A stretch of 32,000 nucleotides of DNA from a virus. The stretch lies in the IMG/VR virus record IMGVR_UViG_3300031820_000002, positions 3,561 to 35,560 of that record; one strand, given 5' to 3'. A model generated the notes under the pieces. It searched no databases and was not told where the DNA came from. It saw nothing but the letters and a program-made list of their open reading frames with translations. Shown one piece after another: positions 13,658-32,000 of the stretch. How positions within the stretch are numbered: position 1 is the stretch's first letter; every line of letters starts with the position of its first letter. Made by a program: the position numbers and the translations under genes.

Positions 13658-13731
13658 TGATTCCGGCAGGATTCGAACCTGCAAATTTTCTCTTTAGGAA
13701 AGAGGCGCCTTATCCATTGGGCTACGGAACC
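13658..13731 (-). tRNA. tRNA-Arg(CCT)
   Basis: Acceptor GGTTCCG/CGGAATC, anticodon loop TTCCTAA, T arm GCAGG-TTCGAAT-CCTGC. Confidence 0.85.
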
Positions 13732-13733
13732 AT

Positions 13734-13810
13734 TGGTACATCCGGCAGGATTTGAACCTGCGACCTTGGAGGTAGAAGCTCCCTGCTCTGGTCCACTGAG
13801 CTACGGATGC
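13734..13810 (-). tRNA. tRNA-Arg(TCT)
   Basis: Acceptor GCATCCG/CGGATGT, loop CTTCTAC, T-loop TTCAAAT, CCA encoded. Confidence 0.85.
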
Positions 13811-13842
13811 GCAGAGCATCCGCCGGAACAAGCTACGGATGC

Positions 13843-15681
13843 CTAAGCGACCTTGTCGTCCTCGGTCTGAGTCTCGACGGTTGCCTGGTCATGGGAACGG
13901 AAGACATTCTCCTCTGGAACGTCGTCATTGTCAAAGGCCAAGACGCCCTTGGTGGCACGACGAGTCGATGGGATGTACTGCGCGTTCTCGGGACCCTTGA
14001 CGTAGTCCTTCTTCCAGAACCTCTTAATCGCAAGCCATTCGCCAGGCTGAGGCAGCGCCATGTCACGCTCGCGCAGTTCGTTGCGAACCCACTCATCGAC
14101 AGGGCGGTCCTTGTAGATGCTGTACTTCTTATTGTCGAGATCAAGTTCCAGTTCGACATCCATCGGCGTGTAGCCACGATAGATTTTGCAGCACCAGTGG
14201 CCGCGCACATCAAATCGATGAGACAGCTTCGCGCGCAGCTTGCCGCCTGAGTATCCCTTGCTGATCTCCCTGATCACTTTGTCGCGCAGGTAGACCGTGT
14301 AGAACATCGGAGGGACGGCTTGCTTGATGCCGAGGTCGCCAAGCTTGTTCTTGAACTTGCTGATCGTGTGCAGGCTGGGCTTGCGCTGAGCGATGACGGT
14401 TGAGTGGTGATCGTTGATGCAGTCGACGAGCCCGTGCAGGACGAACGGCGCCAAACACAGCTTGTGGTTCCACATCACGAATTCCTGGACGTGGTGCGTA
14501 GAGATATGGAGGTTCATCTCCCAGGTCTCGCCGTGATCGATGTAGCCCTTGCTGATCAAAATCTCGTGATGCTCGCCGCTGGCCTCGGCGATGATGCCGA
14601 CGAGCATGTATTCACCTGGGTCAAGACCACGCGTCTCAGCCTGGAGCTGGGAAAGCGCAATTCCGCCTGTGAGCGCAAACCAGCAAGTGTCGAACGGAAG
14701 CTTGTCCGGGAACGGAAGGCGCTGCAGGGCTTCGGCCTGACGCTTGTGGAGAAGGATCCCCTCTTCCTCGGGAACGTCCACATGTCCCTCACGAGGGTCG
14801 TAGAACTTGAGATGGGCGATATCCTCGGTGACGTGACGGTCGACCGAAATATGCAGCTCGTTGTACGACTCCGGCGTGATCTCGAAGATGCGCGCTTTGC
14901 GAAGGTAGTTGTACATAGCCCCGCACTCGGTACGGAACTTCTCTTTGACCTTCTTGTTCCCCCAGTTCTGCTTGAGGGCGCGGAGAACCATCAGGTAGTT
15001 CTCGACGACGTACTCGTGGGCCTTGTTGTCGGGCTTGCCCCACCACGGCATCTCCTTTGGCTTCCACGGCAGCGGTCCGCCACCGATTTCTTCTAGAAGT
15101 GTAGGGATGCGCAGGATGCGCTCCATCTGAAGCTTGAGCCGGCTGGTCTCAGGAAGCCACTGCGGCGCCTTCGCGCGCAACGTTTTCAGCGTGTCTTCCC
15201 ATGCCCGCTGGATGCTGGAACGAAGCTCGTCGGCGGTGAACCTCTCGGCCTGCTCCAAGATCATGTTGATGATGCCACCGGGAAAATGGCCGCCATCATT
15301 GAAGTACAGCCAGTAGACGTCTTTCTCTTCGTCTTGGCGACGCGCACGCAAGAACCACATCCCCCACTTTTTGCGGAGGCTCTCGAACAGCAGCCGGTCG
15401 TTTTCCGAGACTCGGTAGCCGACCCATTGCTCACCGCTATCCAGCATGAGGCCGATGTATTTAGGGTTCGGCGACTTTGATGGCTTGTCAGCGTCGAGCT
15501 TGTCCTGCCACCGGATGGTGATGTTGCCCTCGGGGATTACCTGCTGTTCTGTCACAGGCCAGATGAGCTGAACGACGGGGTAGAGATAATGCGTCGCCCC
15601 CCTTGGACAAGGGACCGCATCCGCTCCGACACGGACGATGTTCTGTCCTTCGACGATGGGGGTGTCCGGGGTGACCTTCAT
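13843..15681 (-). CDS. Large hypothetical protein (612 aa)
   Basis: Longest ORF in the window, with varied composition and no motif I can name. The antisense ORFs are discounted. Confidence 0.6.
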   Translation of the reverse strand: MKVTPDTPIVEGQNIVRVGADAVPCPRGATHYLYPVVQLIWPVTEQQVIPEGNITIRWQDKLDADKPSKSPNPKYIGLMLDSGEQWVGYRVSENDRLLFESLRKKWGMWFLRARRQDEEKDVYWLYFNDGGHFPGGIINMILEQAERFTADELRSSIQRAWEDTLKTLRAKAPQWLPETSRLKLQMERILRIPTLLEEIGGGPLPWKPKEMPWWGKPDNKAHEYVVENYLMVLRALKQNWGNKKVKEKFRTECGAMYNYLRKARIFEITPESYNELHISVDRHVTEDIAHLKFYDPREGHVDVPEEEGILLHKRQAEALQRLPFPDKLPFDTCWFALTGGIALSQLQAETRGLDPGEYMLVGIIAEASGEHHEILISKGYIDHGETWEMNLHISTHHVQEFVMWNHKLCLAPFVLHGLVDCINDHHSTVIAQRKPSLHTISKFKNKLGDLGIKQAVPPMFYTVYLRDKVIREISKGYSGGKLRAKLSHRFDVRGHWCCKIYRGYTPMDVELELDLDNKKYSIYKDRPVDEWVRNELRERDMALPQPGEWLAIKRFWKKDYVKGPENAQYIPSTRRATKGVLAFDNDDVPEENVFRSHDQATVETQTEDDKVA

Positions 15682-15934
15682 GCGGACCTAGCTACAAGGC
15701 ATTTGGTCCGCGCTTTCATGAATCTGCGAAAACGCTTGCGCCGACCGTAGTTGTCACTTTTTTACGATTGGCTGTCAGATGCGACGCCCTGTGACCGTCA
15801 TGAGGGTGGAAGGCGCAGGTCTCATATCAGATAGACCTCGGCCGTTATGGATACAGAAAGGAGATAGGACGGCCGATTTTCTGTCCGATTGGTGTCACAC
15901 GGCGCGTCCAGAGAACGACAGGCAAACAGAACAT

Positions 15935-16126
15935 GCTCTCGCTGGAGAGATTCGACCGTCCGGGGTTATCGCGGAAGAAACCGGCTCTAGGCCGCACACC
16001 CATGCCTTCGGTACCTGCCGTTGGGATGGTAGCGGCAACCTGCGCAGGTCTGAGCTGGGGACCTGAGGCGTCTACAGGAAACCGGGAAATGCGGTCGTTG
16101 CGTGGGTTCGAATCCCACGGAGAGCA
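15935..16126 (+). ncRNA. Compact tmRNA-like RNA (tRNA-like domain plus internal region)
   Basis: The 5' end GCTCTCG..GGAGAGATTCGACCG contains the tmRNA GAUUCGAC motif. CGACCG pairs with CGGTCG at the 3' side (P2a-like). T arm GTGGG-TTCGAAT-CCCAC, then GGAGAGC pairing back to the 5' end. Confidence 0.55.
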
Positions 16127-16129
16127 CGA

Positions 16130-16411
16130 ATGGCAAAGAGGACTAAAAAAGAACAGCGCCAGCTGGAGGCCCAGTGGCGCGACGAGGAGGAGTACCTCAA
16201 GGAGGAGATAGAGCGCGACCTTGAGGAGAACGTGCGTCGTCTGTGGAAAACGACGCGGTGGTACCTCGGTCACGAGGAGTGGACCTTCTACCAGGGTTTC
16301 GAAGAGGACACCTGGTGCGGTTGCGACTGCAACAGGTGGAACCGCTTTGAGCTGCAGAAGGCGATCGATCGTCTACGAGCTTGGCGTGCCCGCAGGGAAT
16401 ACTGGATCTAG
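16130..16411 (+). CDS. Hypothetical protein
   Basis: ORF of 93 aa, charged at the N-terminus, with a W/C-containing C-terminus. Confidence 0.45.
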   Translation: MAKRTKKEQRQLEAQWRDEEEYLKEEIERDLEENVRRLWKTTRWYLGHEEWTFYQGFEEDTWCGCDCNRWNRFELQKAIDRLRAWRARREYWI

Positions 16412-16502
16412 CGGAAGACGGCGGAGTCGAACCGCAAGCGAGTTCATCACCCGCTCCATCCCGCTTCCAACGGGCTCAGGCTCCACAGCCTGTTCATCTT
16501 CC
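16412..16502 (-). tRNA. tRNA-Ser(GGA), class II
   Basis: Acceptor GGAAGAT/GTCTTCC, loop TTGGAAG, long variable arm, T arm TGCGG-TTCGACT-CCGCC, G73. Confidence 0.75.
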
Positions 16503-16506
16503 AGTG

Positions 16507-16716
16507 CTACCGACGTCTAGCACGTTTTTCCGGTAGCTGTATGACCTGATTGCTATTGCGGCTCGTTTTCACTGGGAGCTTCCTGATCTCGGCGAGGCGA
16601 CGGGGATGAGCCCGTTTGGCCTCTGTCGTCGTCCCGCACTGTTGGCAGTACGTGACGTAAGCATTTTCCGTGTCGTGAACGTCGAGGTGATCGTAGCCGC
16701 AATTGAAACACTTCAA
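16507..16716 (-). CDS. Zinc-ribbon protein
   Basis: CFNCG...CQQCG motifs. Last gene of the ligase/PrfH operon. Confidence 0.5.
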   Translation of the reverse strand: MKCFNCGYDHLDVHDTENAYVTYCQQCGTTTEAKRAHPRRLAEIRKLPVKTSRNSNQVIQLPEKRARRR

Positions 16717-16722
16717 GGTGTT

Positions 16723-17352
16723 TTAATCCCAGTCCCCTCTCAGGTACCTCTTGAGCTGCCACTGCTTGTTCAGCACGTGATCAGTGACAACGCCGTCCTG
16801 AGAACGGATCGTTCTGCGTTTGTCTCCCCGCATCCCCGAACCGACCTGTTCACGCCGCGAAGATGACGTTTGCGCAGAATGTTGGTTGTGTGCCGCATCC
16901 CAGAGTCTTGCTCGAAGAACCTCAAGCGCAGTTTCTTTGTTGCTGTGCTGAGATCTTTCAGACTCACATCTAACCGTGATCCCGCTCGGTATGTGCGTGA
17001 GCACGACGGCGCTATCCGTCACGTTTCGGTGCTGGCCGCCGGCCCCAGATCCACGACAGAATTTCCAATCCAGGTCGCCATCGTTGACGATGACCTGAGT
17101 CGGAGAGCGCTCGGGCAGAACGGCAACCGTGATGGTGCTGGTCTGCATCCGTCCACGCTTCTCGGTGGGCGGCACCCTCTGCCATCTGTGCCCACCTGAT
17201 TCGTTGGCAAACGCTACATCGGAGCCCTTGCCAGAGGCCTTGAAGACAAGAAGGCCTGGTCTCTCGCTCACGATTTCGAGGTCAAAGACCCCTCCGAGCC
17301 CCCATCTTTGCGTAGATCGCAAACTGGTCGCGAACGAGTAATTTGGCATCAT
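16723..17352 (-). CDS. prfH: PrfH-like (class I release-factor GGQ domain) protein
   Basis: GSGAGGQHRNVTDSAVVLTHIPSGITVRCESERSQHSNKETA is the RF GGQ/peptidyl-hydrolase domain. Trimmed to MMPNYSF (GAGGG box upstream), giving about 209 aa, a PrfH-like size. Confidence 0.7.
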   Translation of the reverse strand: MMPNYSFATSLRSTQRWGLGGVFDLEIVSERPGLLVFKASGKGSDVAFANESGGHRWQRVPPTEKRGRMQTSTITVAVLPERSPTQVIVNDGDLDWKFCRGSGAGGQHRNVTDSAVVLTHIPSGITVRCESERSQHSNKETALEVLRARLWDAAHNQHSAQTSSSRREQVGSGMRGDKRRTIRSQDGVVTDHVLNKQWQLKRYLRGDWD

Positions 17353-17410
17353 CGCCGCCCTCGGCGGCCCTAATTTCGACAAAAACCGACATCCACCGAC
17401 CATAGCCGAT

Positions 17411-17578
17411 TCAGATGTCTATGACAATAATCGTCGACTTAGGCTCTTCTTGTCGAGGGCGTTCCTCTGGTTCCCAGGGGTGATGCTCGATTTGCAGCGG
17501 GGCATGGATGTCCTGCTTTGGGCAATGCGGACAGTAATGCCAGGCTGGCCTCGCATGAGGGCATAGCGGTATGTCCAT
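17411..17578 (-). CDS. Small Cys/His protein (55 aa, hand-called)
   Basis: MDIPLCPHARPAWHYCPHCPKQD.... Fills the gap between the ligase and the prfH-like gene. Confidence 0.35.
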   Translation of the reverse strand: MDIPLCPHARPAWHYCPHCPKQDIHAPLQIEHHPWEPEERPRQEEPKSTIIVIDI

Positions 17579-17596
17579 ACTCAAAGTATAGCCCGT

Positions 17597-18214
17597 TCAG
17601 CTGTCGACGATCTTGCGACCTTCAACCTCGCCATATTTCGTCATGACGCGGTCGATCCATTTCTGGGTCTTGGCCTTCGACATGACGAGCTTATGTCCTT
17701 CTCCGCCTTTACCGACGACACCTTCTTCGGTGATGTCGGATATCTCTCCCTGTCGGACTTGGTCGACGAAGCCACGCGTCCATCGACGAGTGCCGAGAAA
17801 TCTGGGAATGTTGAGATGCTCGAACAGCTTGAGAAATTGTTTCGGGCCGAGAATTCCCTTCTTGTACGGATTCACATCGAACAGGGTTAGCTGTTTTTCG
17901 TCTTCAGGTTCATGGAGCCCAGCGAACGAGCGAGGTCCCCAGAATTCAGTGAAAACGATCATCCGTTCCCATCGCTCATCGCGTGCGACCTTGATCAGTG
18001 GTTCAGCGAGAGTTCTTTCAAACACGGCGATGGCGCCGCCGAACACCTCGTCGGTTTCGTCAAACAAACGAGTGCGAGTGCCGTGCTTGTACCAGCCGCT
18101 CTTCCTGGCCCACTCCCAACGCAGGTTGGAACCGTCGAGCTTGTCGAAGACGTAGGCATCGAATTCTCGAAAGTCCTGCCCAGTGCTTCGCGGGATGGAT
18201 GGATAGTCCTTCAT
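17597..18214 (-). CDS. ATP-dependent RNA ligase (Rnl2/PF09414-like nucleotidyltransferase domain)
   Basis: Motif I DKLDGSN (KxDGxN), motif III VFTEFWG, motif IV EGVVGK, motif V KAKTQKW, in the canonical order over 205 aa. Confidence 0.7.
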   Translation of the reverse strand: MKDYPSIPRSTGQDFREFDAYVFDKLDGSNLRWEWARKSGWYKHGTRTRLFDETDEVFGGAIAVFERTLAEPLIKVARDERWERMIVFTEFWGPRSFAGLHEPEDEKQLTLFDVNPYKKGILGPKQFLKLFEHLNIPRFLGTRRWTRGFVDQVRQGEISDITEEGVVGKGGEGHKLVMSKAKTQKWIDRVMTKYGEVEGRKIVDS

Positions 18215-18483
18215 TGAACGAGATCATCATCATGCAGCCGGCAGTAGCCGAGAGGCTCTCCGCCACCGCCGCAGGTGCAGTCAGCCTCTTCAAGGCAGCC
18301 TTCAGGAAGACAGACCGCCGAAAAAGGATAATCCGCCCGAGGGAGCACCTTATCCATCTCGACGATGTATAGATGACCGACGGACGGGAACGACGCGGCA
18401 ACCCCTCTGACTCGCCCACGACCCTTCAGGTCTGGTGTGTCGACGAAGACAAGCTGGTCTTGCCTGTACGTGTACTCGGCCAT
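18211..18483 (-). CDS. Hypothetical protein
   Basis: First ORF after the promoter box at 18511. Overlaps the ligase start by 4 nt. Confidence 0.45.
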   Translation of the reverse strand: MAEYTYRQDQLVFVDTPDLKGRGRVRGVAASFPSVGHLYIVEMDKVLPRADYPFSAVCLPEGCLEEADCTCGGGGEPLGYCRLHDDDLVQ

Positions 18484-18510
18484 TTACCCGGGGTATCAGG
18501 TGATGGTCGG

Positions 18511-18518
18511 ATTGTCAA
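18511..18518 (-). promoter_or_regulatory. -35-like TTGACAAT box
   Basis: Plus-strand ATTGTCAA, between tRNA-Ser(TGA) and the ligase operon. Confidence 0.5.
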
Positions 18519-18520
18519 GA

Positions 18521-18613
18521 TGGAGGAGAGCTGAGGAATCGGACCCCAACCGAGTTACTCACCCGGTCCCTTCCGCTTCAAACGGACGCCCGTCCCAGAC
18601 GGGTTAACTCTCC
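18521..18613 (-). tRNA. tRNA-Ser(TGA), class II
   Basis: Acceptor GGAGAGT/GCTCTCC, loop TTTGAAG, long variable arm, CCA encoded. The T-loop is an atypical TCCGATT. Confidence 0.75.
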
Positions 18614-18638
18614 AAATGCGGCCGAAGCCGCTACAGGC

Positions 18639-19193
18639 TCACTCGTCCTGCTGCTCGGTCAAATCCGAGGTCCAGTACAGGTACGACGCCCAGGCGTCAG
18701 GAGCTGACGTCTGGCTGACCTGGATGGTCATCACCGGTACCCAGTTCGGCTGCGCCGGCTTCGAAAGCAGACGCATTCCAGCCTGAGCCGGCGTGCGGTC
18801 TTTCTTGTCGCGGTTGCAGTCGTAGCAACAGGTGACGATGTTGCTCCACTCGGTCTTTCCGCCCTGCGCGCGGGGAGTGACGTGGTCGTACGTCAGATCC
18901 GCCATCTTGCCCTTCATGCCACAGTACTGGCAGGTGTACTTGTCGCGGGCGAAGATGTTGACACGAGAGAACTTGACCTTCTGCTTGTGGCGCCGGAACG
19001 CATTCAGCAGACGGACAACAGCGGGGATCTTGATGACGAGGCTGACCGACCGGACATCGTGGTCGTACTCCTCGATGACCTCAACCTTTCCCATCGTCAG
19101 TAGAGTGATAGCCCTCTGCCAGGAGATGGCCTTGATCGGCTCATATCCCTGAGAGAGCACAAGAGTTCGCAAATTCGTAGTAGCAGTCGACAC
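18639..19193 (-). CDS. HNH endonuclease
   Basis: CQYCG...DHVTPRAQGG...NIVTCCYDCNRDK. Confidence 0.85.
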   Translation of the reverse strand: MSTATTNLRTLVLSQGYEPIKAISWQRAITLLTMGKVEVIEEYDHDVRSVSLVIKIPAVVRLLNAFRRHKQKVKFSRVNIFARDKYTCQYCGMKGKMADLTYDHVTPRAQGGKTEWSNIVTCCYDCNRDKKDRTPAQAGMRLLSKPAQPNWVPVMTIQVSQTSAPDAWASYLYWTSDLTEQQDE

Positions 19194-19253
19194 GAGGGCA
19201 CCTCCTTTCGTTTGGTTCTATATCTACAATCGTAACAGATTTCGTTTTCAGGG

Positions 19254-19336
19254 TGCCCCGGGCGGGAGTCGAACCCGCACGCTTTTTACGGCGCTCGTTT
19301 TTGAAACGAGTGTGTCTACCACTCCACCACCAGGGC
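19254..19336 (-). tRNA. tRNA-Leu(CAA), class II
   Basis: Acceptor GCCCTGG/CCGGGGC, loop TTCAAAA, long variable arm, T arm GCGGG-TTCGACT-CCCGC. Confidence 0.8.
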
Positions 19337-19409
19337 GCACGCGACCGGAATCGAACCGGCAACCTTCCCGTTGCTTAGGCGGGATGTTCTACCTTTGAAC
19401 TACGCGAGC
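19337..19409 (-). tRNA. Atypical tRNA with a 9-nt anticodon loop CCUAAGCAA
   Basis: Good D arm (GTTC/GAAC) and T arm. The TCCCG/CGGGA stem encloses 9 nt. There is one acceptor mismatch, and the gene abuts tRNA-Leu with no spacer. Confidence 0.5.
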
Positions 19410-19452
19410 ATGAGCCGATTAAATCGTCTCTCTATTCGAATGTCAAAAGAGA

Positions 19453-19534
19453 TGGTGCCGGAATCGGGACTCGAACCACAATTTCTCTCGGCGCCTCACG
19501 GCGGCGAGCACATTATCGATATATGCTATCCGGC
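19453..19534 (-). tRNA. tRNA-like: either a D-armless Ser(CGA)-like tRNA or one whose anticodon arm is replaced by a GUGA-capped 9-bp hairpin
   Basis: Acceptor GCCGGA./.TCCGGC plus ACCA. Only two internal arms: CATAT-ATCGATA-ATGTG and CTCGCCGCC-GTGA-GGCGCCGAG. The T stem is weak. Confidence 0.4.
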
Positions 19535-19539
19535 ATTCG

Positions 19540-19653
19540 TGCGGATGGATGGACTCGAACCACCGACTCCCAAGTTATAAACCTGGTACTCTTCCTGGCG
19601 TCCTTGTTCACGTCGATTGCTCTTCGTGGGATCGCTCTCTGAGTTACATCCGC
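19540..19653 (-). tRNA. tRNA-Ile(TAT) interrupted by a 49-nt D-loop insertion
   Basis: Acceptor GCGGATG/CATCCGC. The D stem ACTC/GAGT is separated by 49 nt. Anticodon arm CCAGG-TTTATAA-CTTGG, T arm GGTGG-TTCGAGT-CCATC. Confidence 0.6.
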
Positions 19654-19658
19654 AGATG

Positions 19659-19734
19659 CGGATCGGGCGGGATTTGAACCACACAGTTCCCAGGGCTATT
19701 AACCCCGGGTGTTCTACCGTTGAACTACCGATCC
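19659..19734 (-). tRNA. Atypical tRNA (loop UUAAUAG, apparent anticodon AAT; weak T stem)
   Basis: Acceptor GGATCGG/CCGATCC, D arm GTTC/GAAC, 7-bp stem CCCGGGG/CCCTGGG. The T stem has only 2-4 pairs. Confidence 0.45.
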
Positions 19735-19740
19735 ATTTGG

Positions 19741-20094
19741 TTATTTGATCAGAGGGAAGTTTGACACCTCCTTCTTCACAAGGGATCGGTGGCACGGCAC
19801 GATGCCGATAGCCATAAGTTGACCATTCCAGGGAGCATCGGGCTCTCGGATGGCAACATGAGGAATGTTCTTCTTCTTGAGCTTCTGTTCGAGTCGAAGA
19901 AGCTCAAGCTCGCTGCGCGCACCAAGGGCAACCGCTCGTGTATCAGACGGAAGGTTGCCAGGGCTGCTCTCGCCTGCGGCGTGAATCAGCTGGGCGCAGA
20001 GGTCACCGATGGGAGCATCGAGGCGACCAATGCAGTAGTGGTAGAGGCAATTCTCGACGGAAACGACCGGAGAATCGTCTGGACTTGCAGGCAA
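19741..20094 (-). CDS. Pth2-family peptidyl-tRNA hydrolase-like protein
   Basis: At 117 aa, the spacing of AQLIHAAG...VALGARSELELLRLEQKL...HVAIREPD...LMAIGIVP resembles PTH2. Confidence 0.5.
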   Translation of the reverse strand: MPASPDDSPVVSVENCLYHYCIGRLDAPIGDLCAQLIHAAGESSPGNLPSDTRAVALGARSELELLRLEQKLKKKNIPHVAIREPDAPWNGQLMAIGIVPCHRSLVKKEVSNFPLIK

Positions 20095-20173
20095 CCACGC
20101 CGCCTGCGGGGCACTCGAAGCGTCAAGCTCGGGAAGACATCGTGGAAATGACGATAGGGCCGACCAGGAGACC

Positions 20174-20179
20174 TGTCAA
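20174..20179 (-). promoter_or_regulatory. TTGACA -35 box with TATCGT 17 nt downstream
   Basis: Plus-strand TGTCAA at 20174 and ACGATA at 20151-20156, upstream of the Pth2-like gene. Confidence 0.4.
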
Positions 20180-20181
20180 CC

Positions 20182-20493
20182 CTACTTCTCGACTTTCACG
20201 CAACGGCCGAAAATCGCAGAGGGAGCAACCCAGCCGTTGATGAATCCCTTGTTGTTGGCGATTTGGAATCGCTTATCGGCGCCGATGGCCCTGATGAGAT
20301 GGAAGAGCACCTTGCCGTTTACCTTGACGAGTACAACGTCACCAACGTTGAGTGAGCCGGCATCTGTCACCGGCTCCACGGTGCAGAGGTTCCCGTCATC
20401 CACCTTGCCCGTCATTGAATTGCCGCGAGGCCGGAACTGAACGGTTTCTCCAGCCTTCAGCTTCGCGATATGTCCTGTTGCCCATCCATCCAT
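20182..20493 (-). CDS. S24 (LexA/UmuD-like) peptidase-fold protein
   Basis: RGNSMTGKVDDGNL..V resembles the GxSM Ser motif, with a downstream Lys region (ANNKG). Confidence 0.5.
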   Translation of the reverse strand: MDGWATGHIAKLKAGETVQFRPRGNSMTGKVDDGNLCTVEPVTDAGSLNVGDVVLVKVNGKVLFHLIRAIGADKRFQIANNKGFINGWVAPSAIFGRCVKVEK

Positions 20494-20510
20494 TGCTTGT
20501 ACCTACAAAT

Positions 20511-20690
20511 CTAGAAGCAGCAGCTATCACGGTAGTGACACTTTGGGCACTTCATATGCGCGTGTTCGGGCACTAACGGGATATTGCAGGTTGGACAGGA
20601 GATATCCGGGTCACATGTAGCGCCTAGAAGACGCTCAAGTTCCGCTACATCCACGAATCTAGGTTCCGCCTTCTTTTTCTCGTCTGTCAT
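20511..20690 (-). CDS. Zinc-ribbon protein
   Basis: Start trimmed to MTDEKKK to clear tRNA-Leu. Contains CPTC...CPKC. Confidence 0.5.
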   Translation of the reverse strand: MTDEKKKAEPRFVDVAELERLLGATCDPDISCPTCNIPLVPEHAHMKCPKCHYRDSCCF

Positions 20691-20693
20691 TTG

Positions 20694-20776
20694 TGTCACC
20701 GACTGGATTCGAACCAGCACGCCTTGCGGCACCAGCACCTCAAGCTGGCGAGTCTACCAAGCTCCTCCACGGTGAC
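20694..20776 (-). tRNA. tRNA-Leu(GAG), class II
   Basis: Acceptor GTCACCG/CGGTGAC, arm CCAGC-TTGAGGT-GCTGG, long variable arm, T-loop TTCGAAT. Confidence 0.85.
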
Positions 20777-20780
20777 GTAA

Positions 20781-21998
20781 CTACTTCTTGTACTTGCCGA
20801 TGCCGAAATGGTCAGCAAGTGTCTTCTTCACGTCTTCGAAGATCTCGTTCACGGAGCGGTTCATGTCGAGCGTAACGACGTTCGACATGTCGCCGAACAG
20901 CTTCTTGTACTCGACGTCGCAGGCATGCGCGTATTTGACGGCACTTTCCTCTGCGCTCTGTGAGTATCCGATGTCCATGCCGGCGGCGTAGTAATTGGGA
21001 ACGCCCTTGTCTTTCATGATGCGCTCGAACGCCAGCCGAACTGGTGCGATGCAGTGGAAGATCAGATCGGGCTTCCGCATGCCACTGTAGACGTAGTTCA
21101 GAAGCTGCGTGTCTACGCCGCGAACCTTGTCTCGTACGTACGAGGTGTAGATATAGCGATCTGTGACGACGATGTTGTTCTCCTGCAGAGCAGGAATCAC
21201 ATCGTTTTCGTAGCGAGTGATCATGTCAGCCGCGTGCAGGATGCTGAACATGACCGGCGTCAGAAGTTTTTTCTTCTTGGCCTTCTTGATCGTCTTGCCG
21301 AGCAGCTTTGACGAATTCCACTTGGTGGTGGCGACGTCGTATCCGTGATCATCTAGCCAGTCGACGAGATGCTCCGTTTGAGTCGTCTTGCCCACGCCAT
21401 CCACGCCCTCAAATACGATGAAGAGTCCTTTGTCGGTTTTCGTCTTGGCGTTGAGGATGTCGTTGACCTGGTCGTCGATGATATCTTCGACGAGGGCGCC
21501 TGGTGCCCGCATGATTGCTTCAACCGTCTTGTGGTGGGCGAAAGCGAAGCTCGCAGCATGGTGAATGCGGGCGTTGTCCTGGAAGGCCATGTGCGGCAAC
21601 TTGCCAATGGAGCACCACTTCGCCTCGGCGGCGTCAGATCCGGCCTTTGCTTCCGCGTTCGGCTTAACCTTGGCCCAGAACGTCACCCCTGATTTGTTGT
21701 GTCCGAATTCCGGGTATCCTGGATTCCACGGGGCAAGAAGGTGCAGCTCCTTTAGGTGAAGGCCGGTTTCTTCTTTGGCTTCCCTGCGAGCGCCATCTTC
21801 AACGGTCTCGTATTGCTCGACATGACCGCCGGGTAGAGCCCACCAGCCCTTGAACGGGGCGCCGCCACGTTTGGTGATCAATACTTCGATGCCGTTCTGA
21901 GGGTCTTCGCGGAAGATGGCCACGCAAGCAAGGACGCCAGTATCATTGGACGTCATCTCGCGAAGCTCGTCGCAAACCCGTCTCAACGACGTAAGCAT
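20781..21998 (-). CDS. tmk: Nudix hydrolase - thymidylate kinase fusion protein
   Basis: N-terminal Nudix box GGHVEQYETVEDGARREAKEETGL. C-terminal FIVFEGVDGVGKTT P-loop plus TDRYIYTSY (DRY motif) of dTMP kinase. Confidence 0.8.
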   Translation of the reverse strand: MLTSLRRVCDELREMTSNDTGVLACVAIFREDPQNGIEVLITKRGGAPFKGWWALPGGHVEQYETVEDGARREAKEETGLHLKELHLLAPWNPGYPEFGHNKSGVTFWAKVKPNAEAKAGSDAAEAKWCSIGKLPHMAFQDNARIHHAASFAFAHHKTVEAIMRAPGALVEDIIDDQVNDILNAKTKTDKGLFIVFEGVDGVGKTTQTEHLVDWLDDHGYDVATTKWNSSKLLGKTIKKAKKKKLLTPVMFSILHAADMITRYENDVIPALQENNIVVTDRYIYTSYVRDKVRGVDTQLLNYVYSGMRKPDLIFHCIAPVRLAFERIMKDKGVPNYYAAGMDIGYSQSAEESAVKYAHACDVEYKKLFGDMSNVVTLDMNRSVNEIFEDVKKTLADHFGIGKYKK

Positions 21999-24089: not shown

Positions 24090-24261
24090 TCCTGGAAATG
24101 CACTGCAAGTTCGCTAACTTACATGTGATTTCAGTAGTGCCGCGCATTGGTGTTTCCTTGGACTTTCGGTTGGTTTCTACGAGAGAGGCTTGCTTACCGT
24201 TGCTCCCTTCCGGGCCTGGCGGGGTTCACAAGTTGAATGCACCCTAATGGACGAGCGGCGC

Positions 24262-24269
24262 ATTGTCAA
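24262..24269 (-). promoter_or_regulatory. -35-like TTGACAAT box
   Basis: Plus-strand ATTGTCAA. Leaves a leader of about 140 nt before the 24089 start. Confidence 0.45.
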
Positions 24270-24276
24270 GAATTAG

Positions 24277-24405: not shown

Positions 24406-24407
24406 AT

Positions 24408-24540
24408 TGGTCGACAGGGTCGGGAATTGAACCCAACTACCACCAGTCCCTTGGTAACCATAAATCTACGGTTCACCGAAGCGAACAAAGAGCGATCCAC
24501 GGCGTTTTTTACTGGTGCTCTACCGTTGAGCTACCTGTCG
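24408..24540 (-). tRNA. Interrupted tRNA (63 nt between the anticodon-stem strands, containing module copy 2)
   Basis: Acceptor CGACAGG/CCTGTCG plus ACCA, D arm GCTC-AACGGTA-GAGC. The CCAGT...ACTGG stem is split by the insert. T-loop TTCAATT. Confidence 0.55.
24453..24502 (-). repeat. Structured RNA module copy 2 (closed-P1 form)
   Basis: Sense CCGTGGATCGCTC-TTT-GTTCGC-TTCG-GTGAAC-CG-TAGATTTAT-GGTTACC. P1 has a G.U pair valid only on this strand. Confidence 0.6.
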
Positions 24541-24541
24541 G

Positions 24542-24612
24542 TCCCCCACGGAAGAGTCGAACTTCCGTCCTTCGCTTATCAAGCAACCGCTCTGCCATTG
24601 AGCTAGTGGGGG
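24542..24612 (-). tRNA. tRNA-Ile(GAT)
   Basis: Acceptor CCCCCAC/GTGGGGG, D arm GCTC/GAGC, loop TTGATAA, T arm GGAAG-TTCGACT-CTTCC. Confidence 0.8.
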
Positions 24613-24668
24613 TTGTTACAGATCTTTGTGCGTTTGTTCCAGATCCAGATCGGGGATAGCCTTTGATC

Positions 24669-24827
24669 ATGCTGATCGCAATCTGGCCACTCGTCATCGC
24701 CGTCATTGGCGCCCTTGTGTACGCGCTTGCGAGTAACTCGAAAGCGGCTGAACTTGGCCGCCTCGTGTTCTTCTGCGGGTTCTTCTGGCTGGTGTACAGC
24801 CTCGTTGGACACACGCTGAAGATGTGA
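24669..24827 (+). CDS. Small two-helix membrane protein (52 aa, hand-called)
   Basis: MLIAIWPLVIAVIGALVYALASNSKAAELGRLVFFCGFFWLVYSLVGHTLKM. Plus-strand gene nested in the minus-strand tRNA array. Overlapping minus ORFs run into tRNAs. Confidence 0.5.
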   Translation: MLIAIWPLVIAVIGALVYALASNSKAAELGRLVFFCGFFWLVYSLVGHTLKM

Positions 24828-24830
24828 TCG

Positions 24831-24903
24831 TAGGACTGGCTGGATTTGAACCAGCTACCCCGCGCTTATCAAGCACGTGCTCTACCAAGTGAGCTACAGT
24901 CCC
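24831..24903 (-). tRNA. tRNA-Ile(GAT), second copy
   Basis: Acceptor GGGACTG/CAGTCCT, arm CGTGC-TTGATAA-GCGCG, T arm GCTGG-TTCAAAT-CCAGC. Confidence 0.85.
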
Positions 24904-24913
24904 AAACTGAAAG

Positions 24914-24997
24914 TGCCGGTGACAGGGGTCGAACCTGCCTGGCCTTGCGGCCACTGCGCCCTGAACGCAGCGTGTCTACCAAATCCACCACACCGGC
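24914..24997 (-). tRNA. tRNA-Leu(CAG), class II
   Basis: Acceptor GCCGGTG/CACCGGC, arm CTGCG-TTCAGGG-CGCAG, variable arm TGGCCGCAAGGCCAG. Confidence 0.85.
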
Positions 24998-25098
24998 AAA
25001 AGGGAAGTCCGTGAGTGTGCTGCTACGCCAAATGCTCTAAGGGCTGTTTCGGCCGTCGGGGCTCTCGCACTTCTGCGTTCGCACTGCTTCCCCTCAGA

Positions 25099-25125
25099 CC
25101 CGCATTTCCTCTCGTACTGCGCGGG
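25099..25125 (-). other. Sarcin-ricin-loop-like hairpin
   Basis: Sense CCCGC-GCAGUACGAGAGGAAAU-GCGGG. The 12 nt AGUACGAGAGGA (complement of 25107-25118) equal 23S 2654-2665. Confidence 0.75.
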
Positions 25126-30178: not shown

Positions 30179-30186
30179 ATTGTCAA
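30179..30186 (-). promoter_or_regulatory. -35-like TTGACAAT box inside the tRNA array
   Basis: Plus-strand ATTGTCAA. Confidence 0.5.
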
Positions 30187-30191
30187 AAGGA

Positions 30192-30255
30192 AGCTCGCTA
30201 CAATCGACGGACTTGAACCGTCGTAGTCGACGTACCAACCCAGGTTGCAGCAAGC
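30192..30255 (-). tRNA. Short tRNA-like element (acceptor and extended T arm, no clear anticodon arm)
   Basis: GCTTGCT/AGCGAGC pairing and GACGG-TTCAAGT-CCGTC T arm. Only 64 nt. Confidence 0.3.
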
Positions 30256-30257
30256 CG

Positions 30258-30329
30258 CGTACTCCATGGGGATCGAACCCATCTCTGACGGTTTAACAGA
30301 CCGGCGCATCACCAGATCGCTAGGAGTAC
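30258..30329 (-). tRNA. tRNA-Asn(GTT)
   Basis: Acceptor GTACTCC/GGAGTAC, G73, loop CTGTTAA, T arm ATGGG-TTCGATC-CCCAT. Confidence 0.8.
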
Positions 30330-30472
30330 AATTTCGCCATGTGGACCTGACGTCTCGGGTCCTCTGCTCACGAGGGAAACCGTCCTGACGAGGATCGTGC
30401 TAGCTGTCCTTGTCTTCCAGACGACTTCAATGTGAAGCCTTGCTGCATGCCGCATGGCGACGGCTTGCCTAG
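30330..30472 (-). ncRNA. Structured 143-nt inter-tRNA spacer RNA (unknown)
   Basis: No credible ORF. Several hairpins (AAGCC/GGCTT, GTCT-GGA-AGAC, CCTC...GAGG). Confidence 0.3.
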
Positions 30473-30555
30473 CTCCAGGGGTTGGATTCGAACCAACGAT
30501 TGGGTTTCCCACGCACGGTTAACAGCCGTGTGCCTTACCGCTAGGCTACCCTGGA
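30473..30555 (-). tRNA. tRNA with anticodon GTT (Asn) and a long variable arm
   Basis: Acceptor TCCAGGG/CCCTGGA, arm CACGG-CTGTTAA-CCGTG, extra arm GTGGG-AAA-CCCA, T arm GTTGG-TTCGAAT-CCAAC. Confidence 0.7.
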
Positions 30556-30635
30556 ATAGGGCGAACCGGATCACTAACGGACCTTGCGGTCCTTACGCAA
30601 TCGCTCCCGGGGATATTCCACCCTAGTAGTTCGCT
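30556..30635 (-). ncRNA. 80-nt spacer RNA closed by a GCGAAC/GTTCGC stem
   Basis: The ends pair (GCGAAC...GTTCGC). Internal GGACC-GCAA-GGTCC hairpin (GNRA on the minus sense). Lacks the GGTTAYC box. Confidence 0.35.
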
Positions 30636-30710
30636 TGGAGCTGACGCCCGGACTTGAACCGGGAACCTCGTCTTTACGAAAGACTTGCACCGCCATTGTG
30701 CTACGCCAGC
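30636..30710 (-). tRNA. tRNA-Thr(CGT)
   Basis: Acceptor GCTGGCG/CGTCAGC, loop TTCGTAA, T arm CCCGG-TTCAAGT-CCGGG, CCA encoded. Confidence 0.85.
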
Positions 30711-30719
30711 TAATATTCG

Positions 30720-30791
30720 TTCGGGCGGAAGGAGTCGAACCCTCAACATTAGGCTCCAAAGGCCCACGTTCTGCCATTGAACTACGCCCGA
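30720..30791 (-). tRNA. tRNA-Gln(TTG)
   Basis: Acceptor TCGGGCG/CGCCCGA (U1-A72), arm TGGGC-CTTTGGA-GCCTA, T arm GAGGG-TTCGACT-CCTTC. Confidence 0.85.
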
Positions 30792-30815
30792 TCAGTTTCT
30801 GTGTATACTCAGCCT

Positions 30816-30992
30816 ATGCACGACAAAAGAAAGCAGAGCCTCTATTTTCCCGAGGGAATGCTCGAAGAAGTCGTCGCAGAAGCGACGAGACTCGATCGAT
30901 CATTGTCCTGGGTTGTTCAAAAGGCCTGGGAGCTGTCGAAGGAAAAGCTTAAGGAGCTTCCTGCGGCACCTGGAGCTGGCGACGGGATTTGA
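30816..30992 (+). CDS. Ribbon-helix-helix (CopG/Arc-like) DNA-binding protein
   Basis: MHDKRKQSLYFPEGMLEEVVAEATRLDRSLSWVVQKAWE has an RHH beta-strand plus two helices. TGTGTATACT (extended -10) ends 6 nt before the ATG, so the mRNA may be leaderless. Confidence 0.6.
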   Translation: MHDKRKQSLYFPEGMLEEVVAEATRLDRSLSWVVQKAWELSKEKLKELPAAPGAGDGI

Positions 30993-31045
30993 ACTCGTAA
31001 CCTTCTGCTTACAAGGCAGCTGCACTACCGTTGTGCTACGCCAGC
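30971..31045 (-). tRNA. tRNA-Thr(TGT)
   Basis: Acceptor GCTGGCG/CGCCAGC, arm GCTGC-CTTGTAA-GCAGA, T-loop TTCAAAT, CCA encoded. Confidence 0.85.
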
Positions 31046-31050
31046 ATTCG

Positions 31051-31123
31051 AGCGGACAGCGGGAATCGAACCCAGCCTGAAGATGCTTGGAAGGCACCTG
31101 CCTCACCAGTCGGCCTTGTCCGC
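31051..31123 (-). tRNA. tRNA-Gly(TCC)
   Basis: Acceptor GCGGACA/TGTCCGC, U73, arm GGTGC-CTTCCAA-GCATC. Confidence 0.85.
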
Positions 31124-31125
31124 GT

Positions 31126-31201
31126 TGGGGTGTCTAGAGGGAATTGAACCCTACTCTTCAAGAGCCACAATCTTGCGTGCGACCACTACACTATAGACAC
31201 C
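31126..31201 (-). tRNA. tRNA-His(GTG) with encoded G-1
   Basis: G-1:C73 pair, acceptor GTGTCTA/TAGACAC, arm CAAGA-TTGTGGC-TCTTG, CCA encoded. Confidence 0.9.
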
Positions 31202-31207
31202 ATATCG

Positions 31208-31280
31208 AGCGGACGGCGGGATTCGAACCCAGCCTGATCTTCCTTGGCAAGGAAGTGCCGCACCTAGCGGCTTCGTCCGC
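31208..31280 (-). tRNA. tRNA-Gly(GCC)
   Basis: Acceptor GCGGACG/CGTCCGC, U73, arm CTTCC-TTGCCAA-GGAAG. Confidence 0.9.
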
Positions 31281-31288
31281 AAAATCAG

Positions 31289-31363
31289 TCGGGGTAGCCG
31301 GATTTGAACCGGCAATCTCATGGTCCCGAACCACGCGCTCTAACCAGATTGAGCCATACCCCG
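31289..31363 (-). tRNA. tRNA-Pro(CGG)
   Basis: Acceptor CGGGGTA/TACCCCG, arm CGTGG-TTCGGGA-CCATG, T arm GCCGG-TTCAAAT-CCGGC. Confidence 0.9.
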
Positions 31364-31420
31364 GAAAGGGCGCTAGGCGTACTGCCTAGCTTTCATCTCC
31401 CACGGATGGGAGCACCCCGG

Positions 31421-31492
31421 TCGAGCTAGCGGGAATCGAACCCGCGATCCCTTGTCCCCCAGACAAGTGCGATGCCGCTTCGCTATAGCTCG
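31421..31492 (-). tRNA. tRNA-Pro(GGG)
   Basis: Acceptor CGAGCTA/TAGCTCG, arm CTTGT-CTGGGGG-ACAAG, T arm GCGGG-TTCGATT-CCCGC. Confidence 0.9.
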
Positions 31493-31578
31493 GAAAATGG
31501 GCTTCGTTGATCAGTAAAGATCTGCAGGGCCTTTAACCCCAAACCAGGGCACGCAGCTCACACCCTGGACTTGAATCG

Positions 31579-31668
31579 TGCCGCTCTGGGAGTCGAACCC
31601 GCATCCTACGCCAGGAACAGAGGCATTTCCTCCTCCAGCTGGCTTAGGTTCCCGCCAGGAGGAACGGC
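31579..31668 (-). tRNA. Atypical 90-nt tRNA-like RNA (no recognisable 7-nt anticodon loop)
   Basis: Perfect acceptor GCCGTTC/GAGCGGC and a GGG-TTCGACT-CCC T-loop region. Internal arms are CTGGC-GGGAACCTAA-GCCAG and GAGG-AAATG-CCTC. Confidence 0.35.
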
Positions 31669-31681
31669 GCAAATGCTTTCG

Positions 31682-31769
31682 CGGAAGATGAGAGACTCGA
31701 ACTCTCGGAGCAGTTATTAGCCGCTCTACGGTTTAGCAAACCGCTGCCTTACCACTCGGCCAATCTTCC
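31682..31769 (-). tRNA. tRNA-Ser(GCT), class II
   Basis: Acceptor GGAAGAT/ATCTTCC, G73, arm GCGGT-TTGCTAA-ACCGT, long variable arm. Confidence 0.9.
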
Positions 31770-31774
31770 AGTCG

Positions 31775-31845
31775 TGGAGCCAAGGAGAATCGAACTCCTA
31801 TATCTCGGGTGCAAGCCGAGCGCACTCCCTTTGTGCTATGGCCCC
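31775..31845 (-). tRNA. tRNA-Ala(TGC) with G3:U70
   Basis: Acceptor GGGGCCA/TGGCTCC (G3.U70), A73, arm CTCGG-CTTGCAC-CCGAG, T arm AGGAG-TTCGATT-CTCCT. Confidence 0.9.
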
Positions 31846-31847
31846 GT

Positions 31848-31974
31848 TGGGATCGAGGACGGGATTCTCACCCGCAACCTGCCGGGTACCTAACCCGGAA
31901 CTCTTGTAGCACTTGTTCGTGACCAAGTAAATGCGCACTCCTTGATCCGTAACAGAGCCTTGAGCTACCTCGAT
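31848..31974 (-). tRNA. Interrupted tRNA (about 57-nt D-loop insertion; loop UUAGGUA)
   Basis: Acceptor ATCGAGG/CCTCGAT, C73, CCA encoded. D stem GCTC...GAGT is split by the insert. Arm CCGGG-TTAGGTA-CCCGG, T-loop TGAGAAT. Confidence 0.5.
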
Positions 31975-31976
31975 CG

Positions 31977-32000
31977 TGGACCCACGGGGAATCGAACCCC
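31977..32000 (-). tRNA. 3' part of a further tRNA (truncated by the window edge)
   Basis: Plus-strand TGG A CCCACGGGGAATCGAACCCC corresponds to CCA, an acceptor strand and a GGGG-TTCGATT-CCCC T arm. Confidence 0.5.

Follow-up and report, generated by a model that had tools for sequence, protein, structure and literature searches.

A tRNA-rich region of an uncultivated phage with a putatively frameshifted mini release factor gene and interrupted tRNA genes

Introduction

Jumbo phages are described as countering attacks on translation with tRNAs of their own, RtcB or ATP-dependent ligases, cRec, 2H, HAD and calcineurin phosphoesterases, kinases, Nudix proteins and PTH2; in the sections devoted to this subject, Nudix domains are often fused or linked to cRec, and PTH2 is assigned to ribosome rescue (PMC7824862, section 3.4.9; PMC9503650, section 3.7.3). 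Phage tRNAs have been shown experimentally to counter the tRNA-cleaving defences PrrC, retron and PARIS-type nucleases. In this study, we analysed 32,000 nt of the IMG/VR virus record IMGVR_UViG_3300031820_000002 (positions 3,561 to 35,560), hereafter the window, in which a long tRNA gene array surrounds genes for a release factor, an RNA ligase and further enzymes of RNA maintenance. Two of its features, a mini release factor gene that would be read through a +1 frameshift and a group of interrupted tRNA genes, appear to be new.

The PrfH–RtcB2 pair responds to ribosome damage by ribotoxins such as colicin E3 (PMC9304027, PMC1586002, PMC6514570), and homing endonucleases (segB) reside in the tRNA cluster of phage T4 (PMC13096335). 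Surveys of huge phages name RF1 and RF2 in general terms only (PMC7162821; 10.1101/2021.08.26.457843). A sequence-only reading of the window had proposed that its tRNAs, RNA mimics, rescue factors and repair enzymes work as one coordinated counter-defence system. The window maps onto the metagenomic contig L001 of 137 kb (window position = 35864 - L001 coordinate), so that the phage contig measures at least 137 kb; the related contigs are of ∼200 kb. All window coordinates below refer to the minus strand unless marked (+).

Results

The mini release factor gene and its predicted +1 frameshift

The release factor gene, which is of the RF1 type, was located at 16723–17392 through an alignment of 25 loci and an analysis of their reading frames. 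It consists of a 0-frame part of 36 codons (17392–17285) and a +1-frame part (17283–16723), which together, after a +1 shift, specify a product of 222 aa. The frameshift site, read directly from the sequence, is GGAGG GGUCUU UGA (17282–17295). Within it, the GGAGG (17295–17291), which resembles a Shine-Dalgarno (SD) sequence, precedes the P-site codon CUU (17287–17285) and the in-frame UGA (17284–17282), and the next base is C, giving CUU UGA C at 17287–17281. The 3' end of the GGAGG lies exactly 6 nt ahead of the UGA, and a 6-nt spacing between SD and stop codon is the rule in prfB (PMC10732093).

The comparison covered 24 related loci with flanks of up to 10 kb on each side. The Pfam models RF-1/PCRF matched the open reading frame (ORF) at 16723–17403, and when the sequence upstream of the homologous ORFs was translated in the 24 IMG/VR loci, protein similarity extended through the stop codons. 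In the nucleotide alignment of the 25 loci, the short 0-frame ORF corresponded to the start of release factor domain 2 and ended in CUU UGA C, and the rest of the protein followed in the +1 frame. The 0-frame peptide has the pattern M-x-x-(I/V)-(I/V)-E-I-R-A-A-E-G-G-D-D-A-K-L-L-V...A-R-R-G-L, and the junction, ARRGL followed by DLEIV, agrees with unshifted homologues such as P0015 (...AARRGLDVELV...). The single-ORF homologues P0010, P0012, P0015, P0024 and P0035 are continuous across this junction. The frameshift layout was observed in 19 of the 24 related phage loci, where the stop codon is UGA, UAG or UAA and the slippery codon is CUU (UUU in one case). GGAGG at the 6-nt spacing was present in 11 of these 19 loci and weaker GGAG-type motifs in several others. 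The unshifted homologues served as a control, and in these the SD-like motif was degraded to CGAAGAGG, CGGCACGG or CGAAGGGA. As this arrangement is conserved and was present in three independent assemblies of the same phage, a sequencing error was excluded. The same frameshifted mini release factor, with a 37-codon ORF1 and CUU UGA C, was also found in the finished chromosome of the myxobacterium Minicystis rosea (CP016211; L028 9898–10567, 5.2 Mb region), where no tRNA array or phage genes were present within 10 kb.

The corrected protein comprises domains 2, 3 and 4 without domain 1. It aligned with positions 105–331 of the 347 positions of the RF1 profile at 223 bits, and the RF1 models gave 218–223 bits against cut-offs of 400–423 (TIGR00019 / NF001859), which places it below the cut-off of a full four-domain RF1. 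The PrfH profile (TIGR03072) was matched end to end (2–198 of 200) at 91.1 bits against a cut-off of 166.65. In the comparison with PDB sequences, RF1 was matched at 6.5e-41, and the match to PrfH (4.8e-14) was confined to the GGQ domain. The GGQ motif (SGAGGQH) and the PxT tripeptide (VPPTE, PPT) align with those of Escherichia coli and Thermotoga maritima RF1, and the RF1 decoding elements are kept, namely the EGGDD alpha-5 region, Q-R-V-P-P-T-E and the T after GRxQ/H; PPT or PPN was present in most of 120 homologue clusters. The divergent decoding region of PrfH, which does not recognise ordinary stop codons, is thus not what the window protein has. As judged from its sequence, the gene is a domain-1-less RF1-type factor that would need a prfB-style +1 frameshift. 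It had been called PrfH-like in the sequence-only reading; the likeness is limited to the domain-1-less architecture, as the sequence is RF1-type and the PrfH cut-off is missed. The ORF had been delimited wrongly and is the +1-frame part of the gene. Gene callers give only the +1 ORF, at times with a spurious out-of-frame N-terminus. Among the top 120 protein clusters, 58 were full length and 62 were ORF2-only or truncated.

Five homologues (L017, L018, L021, L026 and L027, around position 10000) have no frameshift and contain TGA codons in frame, one or two in each. The TGA of L017 coincides exactly with the shift position of the other homologues, at which E. coli RF1 has a Trp. Recoding or read-through of TGA may thus occur in these five homologues; an ORF-coverage comparison made for recoding at these loci was uninformative, as the removal of any stop codon raised the coverage.

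The nearest GenBank phage matches of the mini release factor were the huge-phage genomes of Al-Shayeb et al. Cultured phages yielded only short GGQ-domain proteins (Otagovirus-type) or probable bacterial contamination, and no isolate with the mini release factor was found. A frameshift in, or truncation of, a phage release factor was not described in the literature searched, an absence that is no proof of novelty.

The tRNA gene array

The release factor gene lies within a tRNA gene array (13657–32000; ARAGORN and Rfam) that holds 39 canonical genes in the window and runs ∼2.7 kb past the window end. ARAGORN placed 39 tRNA genes between 13657 and 31845, every one on the minus strand; 32 of these were recovered by Rfam at the gathering threshold, and the E-value mode supplied the remainder. 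With an interrupted tRNA added by Rfam, the canonical genes in the window number 39–40 and cover 14 amino acids. Ten further tRNAs were identified on the contig beyond the window end, for Tyr, Lys (two), Gln, Phe, Asp (two) and Ala (two), together with an initiator-type tRNA(CAU) that has the C1xA72 mismatch and the GGG/CCC anticodon stem of initiators. The entire array thus comprises ∼50 canonical genes for 19 amino acids and the initiator. A T-arm scan and the intron mode of ARAGORN added ∼7 non-canonical or interrupted tRNA-like genes.

The sequence-only reading had counted ∼53 tRNA or tRNA-like genes with canonical tRNAs for 16 amino acids. The array is dense; this figure is reached only with the ∼7 non-canonical genes, which were probably counted, or with the ten genes beyond the window, and the amino acids covered in the window are 14 rather than 16. 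The multiple isoacceptors reported for Arg, Leu, Ser, Pro, Thr, Val, Ile, Gly and Glu were recovered, and the features do lie together on one strand, all on the minus strand, with the genes co-oriented and closely packed.

Apart from Arg-ACG, an A at the wobble position was observed in the tRNAs Ile-AAU (19658–19734), Leu-AAG (19333–19410) and Ser-AGA (29664–29737), the last of which has no long variable arm. A wobble A outside tRNA-Arg(ACG) is unusual for bacterial-type tRNA sets.

Among 35 sampled gene ends of the phage, the stop codons were TAG in 13, TGA in 11 and TAA in 11. TAG is usually the rarest stop codon in bacteria, and its position as the commonest stop codon of the phage fits a need for extra RF1-type activity. 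The rarest codons of the phage, TTA (four uses) and ATA (12 uses), still have their tRNAs, tRNA-Leu(UAA) and tRNA-Ile(UAU). Neither a suppressor tRNA nor signs of recoding were found in this phage. A megablast search of the island against 50,697 phage records returned a sole match, 55 nt of tRNA. A scan of 13000–32000 for promoters and terminators gave the same counts as shuffled sequence and was therefore uninformative on operon structure.

Interrupted and non-canonical tRNA genes

Four of the non-canonical genes form a family of interrupted tRNA-like genes, identified with the intron mode of ARAGORN and by family alignment. One copy is located at 24408–24540 and three stand in tandem at 25872–26006, 26016–26146 and 26157–26284. 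The genes are ∼130 nt long and share a conserved insert of 45–60 nt (∼55 nt) in the anticodon arm, with an A-rich start, an invariant AUGGUUA and a GNRA-capped hairpin. A pattern search placed the element on eight IMG/VR contigs, of which the family profile confirmed clear copies only on L038, L004 and L005 (L004 2002–2278 and 3056–3189; L005 3341–3610 and 4289–4423; L038 9486–9808). L038 is a 359-kb contig, and its interrupted tRNAs sit in an array of 22 tRNAs. RNAalifold, applied to ten family copies from three phages, returned a consensus of acceptor, D and T stems and the insert hairpin, in which 16 of 22 pairs showed compensatory changes. Deletion of the insert from one L038 copy gave a textbook tRNA-Asn(GUU) anticodon arm. 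A search for exon boundaries that restore a 5-bp stem found a solution for 12 of 12 copies; the boundaries remain ambiguous, and since the search space is large and chance solutions are possible, stem restoration alone is not evidence of exon boundaries.

A further tRNA at 28334–28542 carries an insert of ∼134 nt in the anticodon loop (ARAGORN i(35,134)). Rfam recovered it as tRNA at 47.8 bits over 28336–28541 (206 nt), with 140 nt replacing six loop nucleotides in the alignment, and its identity to L005 is 80% over 214 nt. Two odd, putative tRNA-like genes were read from the sequence with the help of the T-arm scan: a tRNA-Ile(UAU)-like gene whose D-loop holds a ∼50-nt insert (19540–19653), and a gene in which a GNRA-capped hairpin replaces the anticodon arm and the CCA is encoded (19453–19534). 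The stretch holding both (19453–19653) is 84% identical to L004 over 209 nt.

The usual group I introns of bacterial tRNAs are ∼200 nt or more. The inserts in six or seven tRNA genes of the window measure 45–134 nt and are thus too short for this class, and Rfam intron and ribozyme families gave no match to them. Short inserts in phage tRNA genes were not described in the literature searched, which does not by itself prove novelty. A 279-aa protein without assigned function (p279, 23250–24089) had homologues, among the fetched loci, only in L004 and L005, phages that have the interrupted tRNA family. It had no Pfam, PHROGs or NCBIfam match and no PDB sequence match, and its AlphaFold model (pLDDT 79, pTM 0.43) gave no Foldseek match in the PDB with E<1.

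The RNA ligase and other protein genes

The gene upstream of the release factor (17597–18214) encodes a minimal ATP-dependent RNA ligase of 205 aa (PHROG 548, E = 1.9e-10), with motif I as K25-L-D-G-S-N. The window protein itself had no Pfam match; PF09414 was found on many members of its large, well conserved family, close homologues included, and K25, D27, G28 and N30 (KxDGxN) are invariant in 24 homologues. The best Foldseek matches of the AlphaFold model (pLDDT 91.7) were all ATP-dependent RNA ligases (Rnl3, Rnl5, Rnl2, REL1 and Rnl1, probability 1.00). The protein, a bare nucleotidyltransferase domain that lacks the N- or C-terminal accessory domain of Rnl1, Rnl2, Rnl3 or Rnl5, accounts for only ∼35–45% of the matched ligases (target-normalised TM-scores 0.30–0.55).

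The remaining enzymes named in the sequence-only reading were confirmed by profile searches. The HNH endonuclease (18639–19193) matched PF14279, PF01844 and PHROG 16726, and is probably a homing or mobile element. The Pth2-type peptidyl-tRNA hydrolase (19741–20094) passed the Pfam gathering threshold of PF01981 (26.4 bits, cut-off 23), as did the cyclic-phosphate-processing receiver domain cREC (25489–25863), a predicted cyclic phosphodiesterase only, with PF20274 (48.4 bits, cut-off 27, E = 1.6e-12; PHROG 1479). The Nudix-dTMP kinase fusion (20781–21998) combined PF00293 and PF02223, and reached 98 bits with TIGR00041 (cut-off 83). The calcineurin-type metallophosphoesterase that had been noted upstream (10299–11084) matched PF00149 (Metallophos); it also matched NF001204 (ApaH, 4.4e-24) and positions 184–419 of TIGR04075 (Pnkp, 1.4e-22), both below cut-off, and thus resembles ApaH as well as the phosphatase domain of bacterial Pnkp.

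A 612-aa protein without assigned function (13843–15681) is encoded at the promoter-distal end of the array. It has homologues in L004–L006 and had no match in Pfam, PHROGs or NCBIfam, nor in a tblastn search of phage records. Between ligase and release factor lies an unannotated ORF of 55 aa (17411–17578) with a zinc-ribbon-like CPH...CPHC motif and 70% DNA identity in L004. On the other side of the ligase, the stop codon of a 90-aa ORF without assigned function (18211–18483) overlaps the ligase start (ATGA), which suggests translational coupling; this ORF had no homologue beyond this phage among the fetched loci. A dihydrofolate reductase gene (3681–4229) and the true dTMP kinase at 20781–21998 share a theme of thymidylate synthesis, which may be a better explanation of the kinase than RNA repair. 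A lysine- and alanine-rich protein of 154 aa (9596–10060 (+)) with two GRPRKNP repeats of the AT-hook type is encoded where plus- and minus-strand gene blocks switch, and is probably a DNA-binding, histone-like protein.

Candidate RNA mimics

The tmRNA-like RNA and the rRNA-mimic RNA of the sequence-only reading did not hold up. No tmRNA was found by ARAGORN or by the Rfam tmRNA models, and a candidate at the window end (31974–32000, Rfam 15.8 bits) was rejected, as it is the 3' end of tRNA-Ala(CGC). A plus-strand element of ∼190 nt (15935–16126 (+)) resembles a tRNA or the tRNA-like domain of tmRNA in its perfect T-arm, its acceptor stem of 6 bp and a motif like GAUUCGAC. It was not accepted as tmRNA, having U3-A70 instead of G3:U70 and no recognisable tag with a hydrophobic end; it had no Rfam match even with lax filters, a fold z-score of -0.43 and no conservation in the relatives. 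An ORF for a highly charged protein of 93 aa (16130–16411 (+)) starts with ATG 3 nt past the end of this element.

The rRNA mimic reduces to one unconserved sarcin-ricin-like hairpin at 25099–25125, where the exact 12-nt sarcin-ricin core AGUACGAGAGGA, with its bulged-G motif and GAGA tetraloop, stands between CCCGC and GCGGG. The hairpin was absent from all 24 related loci and was found only in this phage. Its folding energy is no better than that of shuffled sequences (z-score 0.18), and a search for the sarcin-ricin 16-mer with three mismatches gave matches in 30 of 100 shuffles. No mimic of the 16S 3' end was found. A 44-nt hairpin at 24189–24232 resembles domain IV of the signal recognition particle (SRP, 4.5S) RNA and scored just above the gathering score (RF00169, 40.7 bits against 40); it has a GGAA tetraloop with flanking loops, is present in the minimum free energy fold and shares a conserved core with L004, the nearest relative. 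This hairpin could bind the host Ffh. A promoter-like motif, TTGACA-N17-TAGGGT, lies directly upstream of it.

Linkage in related phages

The release factor and the tRNA array are strongly linked: the factor lies inside a same-strand array of at least four tRNAs in 16 of the 24 related loci. The unshifted homologues L029, L031 and L032 are located outside tRNA arrays. Homologues of the other window genes were fewer: HNH in seven loci, ligase in three, Pth2 in three, cREC in two and, weakly, the Nudix-kinase in two, which are near-duplicate loci. The nearest relative, L004, is syntenic in gene order and has the ligase, HNH, Pth2, cREC and phosphoesterase; it lacks the Nudix-kinase. L005 has HNH and Pth2 and lacks ligase and cREC, L007 has HNH, Pth2, cREC and a phosphoesterase that is syntenic, as in L004, and lacks the ligase, and L006 lacks ligase, HNH, Pth2, cREC, phosphoesterase and Nudix-kinase altogether. 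Pth2 homologues are accordingly those of L004, L005 and L007.

The ligase adjoins the release factor in four of the 25 loci (the window, L004, L012 and L014). Three ligase homologues on other large phage contigs have no release factor neighbour, and only one of them is near tRNAs; an obligate ligase–release factor pair in the manner of RtcB and PrfH was therefore rejected. In distant phages, the neighbours of the factor are NADAR, YAcAr SLOG, a DUSP-like phosphatase, Pol-beta NTase, HAD_SAK_2, Macro and a TROVE-like vWA protein, and cREC also recurs. The theme of these neighbours is the same (RNA repair and NAD-ADP-ribose (ADPr) metabolism) and the genes are different.

Homologous phages had been named in the sequence-only reading as the place to look for linkage among the elements. 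The one pair that stays together is that of release factor and tRNA array, which largely refutes one system. Since the ligase, cREC, Pth2, HNH and Nudix-kinase come and go, the region is a modular accessory arsenal, and the pattern is one of modular accretion in and around the tRNA region rather than of a co-inherited unit.

Discussion

A probable decoding and RNA-maintenance kit

We consider it probable that the tRNA region of this uncultivated phage acts as a portable decoding and RNA-maintenance kit of loosely linked modules. The gene identities, the architecture and conservation of the frameshift, and the linkage of release factor and tRNA array are shown by the analysis, while the activities that follow, the way in which the frameshift would regulate and any role against host defences are inferred. 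The ∼50-gene tRNA set would let the phage decode its mRNAs while host tRNAs are scarce or have been depleted or cleaved. The 222-aa RF1-type factor would terminate translation at UAA and UAG, which make up 24 of the 35 sampled phage stops, and as its synthesis needs a +1 frameshift, its output should rise when termination at the internal stop is slow. Pth2 would recycle peptidyl-tRNA that has dropped off the ribosome. The minimal ligase, together with cREC (predicted to open 2',3'-cyclic phosphates) and the phosphoesterase (removal of 3'-phosphates), could heal and seal broken tRNAs. The Nudix-dTMP kinase more likely serves nucleotide metabolism or ADPr processing, and the HNH protein is more likely a homing element.

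Several points weigh against this explanation. The UGA at the gene's own shift site is not an expected target of a factor with an RF1-type motif, and homologues with the same PPT use UGA, UAG and UAA, which makes strict autoregulation doubtful; a shift site that reads out general or host termination capacity, or that is merely leaky and constitutive, would fit better. The heal-and-seal pathway is incomplete on paper because a polynucleotide 5'-kinase was not found: the window yielded no domain such as Pnk or AAA_33, and the sole kinase domain passes the dTMP-kinase equivalog cut-off and scores as a genuine dTMP kinase. By its profile scores, the phosphoesterase is an equally good ApaH. The module content differs even among the four closest relatives. 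Lastly, codon compensation cannot be told apart from counter-defence here.

Alternative explanations

The region might instead be a pure supplement of translation capacity, in which tRNAs and release factor match the codon and stop usage of the phage to a host of different composition or sustain translation after host shut-off, defence systems play no part, and the repair enzymes are unrelated passengers. A near-complete tRNA set with a stop-codon decoder in the same array would be expected from such a supplement, the most frequent sampled stop, TAG (13 of 35), would load RF1, and the accessory genes have no stable linkage. However, codon compensation does not require tRNAs for the rarest codons of the phage, RNA-repair and NAD-ADPr domains recur beside the factor in distant phages, and phage tRNAs act as counter-defence elsewhere; we regard this explanation as somewhat unlikely, if worth keeping in view. 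The coordinated counter-defence system of the sequence-only reading, which joined substitution, RNA decoys, tmRNA- and PrfH-type rescue, and repair, is favoured by the co-oriented and tightly packed genes on one strand, their synteny in L004, the ligase beside the release factor in four loci, and the existence of non-canonical tRNA-like RNAs and of hairpins that resemble the sarcin-ricin loop and SRP RNA. It is nevertheless quite improbable. No tmRNA was found and the sarcin-ricin hairpin, unique to this phage, is by folding indistinguishable from chance; what the rescue (tmRNA) and decoy (rRNA) legs stand on is either missing or beyond verification. Most relatives do not show the linkage, the factor, unlike PrfH, is of the RF1 type and keeps its decoding motifs, there is no RtcB, and the Nudix-Tmk and HNH proteins have more ordinary explanations. 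The gene content and its match with the published jumbo-phage framework hold, whereas the one coordinated system does not. Because that framework, in the sections cited above, already covers the gene mix, the system-level proposal restates an existing idea.

Two further proposals involve the ligase. In one, the function of the mini release factor is analogous to that of PrfH: it would release peptides independently of stop codons on ribosomes jammed by cleaved tRNA or rRNA, with the adjacent ligase in the role that RtcB2 has beside PrfH. The PrfH–RtcB2 precedent (PMC6514570), the domain-1-less architecture collinear with the PrfH profile, the ligase next to the factor in four of 25 loci, and the loss of the PxT loop in some homologues (L005, L006 and P0010) are in its favour, but the window protein and most homologues (PPT or PPN) retain the RF1 decoding elements, the PrfH score of 91 is far under the cut-off of 167, and the ligase is of a different, ATP-dependent class and mostly not adjacent; such a function is distinctly improbable. 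In the other, ligase, cREC and phosphoesterase constitute a tRNA-splicing apparatus, and the interrupted tRNAs are cut by an endonuclease and resealed as in the yeast Trl1 pathway. Here, the conserved insert family with its invariant motifs, the insert lengths below those of usual group I introns, the missing Rfam ribozyme or intron match, and the presence of interrupted tRNAs, ligase and cREC together in the window and in L004 would agree with splicing. Yet L005 has interrupted tRNAs and no ligase or cREC in the 10 kb upstream or the ∼6 kb available downstream, a candidate for the endonuclease was not found (p279 gave no match by fold), and the exon boundaries are ambiguous, with stem restoration possible by chance, which leaves splicing by these enzymes highly improbable. 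A bolder combination would see two undescribed translational devices in the region: a widespread mini-RF1 family, present in phage tRNA arrays and some bacteria, whose frameshift senses the state of termination and translation in the cell and switches the factor on when host termination fails, for instance in a defence-triggered shut-down, and anticodon-arm-interrupted tRNAs that are either protein-spliced by ligase, cREC and phosphoesterase or remain unspliced as decoys for anticodon nucleases. We consider this combination improbable.

Implications

The frameshift signal of prfB recurs, with identical spacing, in a different release factor lineage that is carried mostly by phages. For research on recoding, this amounts to a natural experiment, independent of prfB, on the sensing of termination capacity by a CUU-stop site that an SD precedes. 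In annotations, mini release factor genes consistently appear, wrongly, as 'RF1' ORFs with a truncated N-terminus. The interrupted, paralogous tRNAs pose the question of whether bacteriophages have protein-dependent tRNA splicing or carry non-decoding look-alikes. Both features would alter how phage tRNA complements are counted and interpreted.

Comparison with known systems

The window shares with the jumbo-phage sets described by Iyer et al. the tRNAs, an ATP-dependent ligase, cREC, a calcineurin-like phosphoesterase, a nucleotide kinase, Nudix and PTH2, and those authors interpret the sets as the sequence-only reading did, as a response to effectors that target tRNAs and ribosomes. It differs in that the window yielded no sirtuin, KptA, 2H, RlaP or polynucleotide kinase, in its ligase, which is a stand-alone nucleotidyltransferase domain of 205 aa, and in the release factor within the array, which does not appear in the passages of those authors on the subject.

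With PrfH–RtcB2, the window has in common a domain-1-less class I release factor homologue encoded beside an RNA ligase. Its factor differs in being RF1-like with apparently intact stop recognition and a score below the PrfH cut-off, and the pairing is inconsistent (four of 25 loci); RtcB was found neither in the window nor among the annotated neighbours, and the adjacent ligase is ATP-dependent and of the Rnl type. The huge and recoded phages (Al-Shayeb et al. 2020, PMC7162821; Borges et al., 10.1101/2021.08.26.457843) likewise combine RF1 or RF2 homologues with large tRNA complements; the present phage differs in having neither a suppressor tRNA nor a sign of recoding. The T4 tRNA cluster with Pnkp and Rnl1 is similar as a phage tRNA cluster with a heal-and-seal logic; the window differs by having no Pnkp, a ligase outside the Rnl1 family and a tRNA set about six times larger.

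Mimivirus and Megavirus have an eRF1 gene, a virus-encoded release factor whose expression needs translational recoding. That gene is an eRF1 of eukaryotic viruses, with an unrelated fold and another recoding signal. The signal is like that of bacterial prfB (RF2), with which the window gene shares CUU UGA C, the SD-like sequence 6 nt from the stop, the short 0-frame ORF and a class I release factor as the product. In contrast to prfB, the window gene is RF1-type (PPT) and lacks domain 1, and its site lies in domain 2 at codon 37, whereas that of prfB is at codon 26, within domain 1. From homologue to homologue the stop codon differs (UGA, UAG, UAA), so that the site may report general termination capacity and not the activity of its own product, and the mini factor occurs in phages as well as in at least one bacterium.

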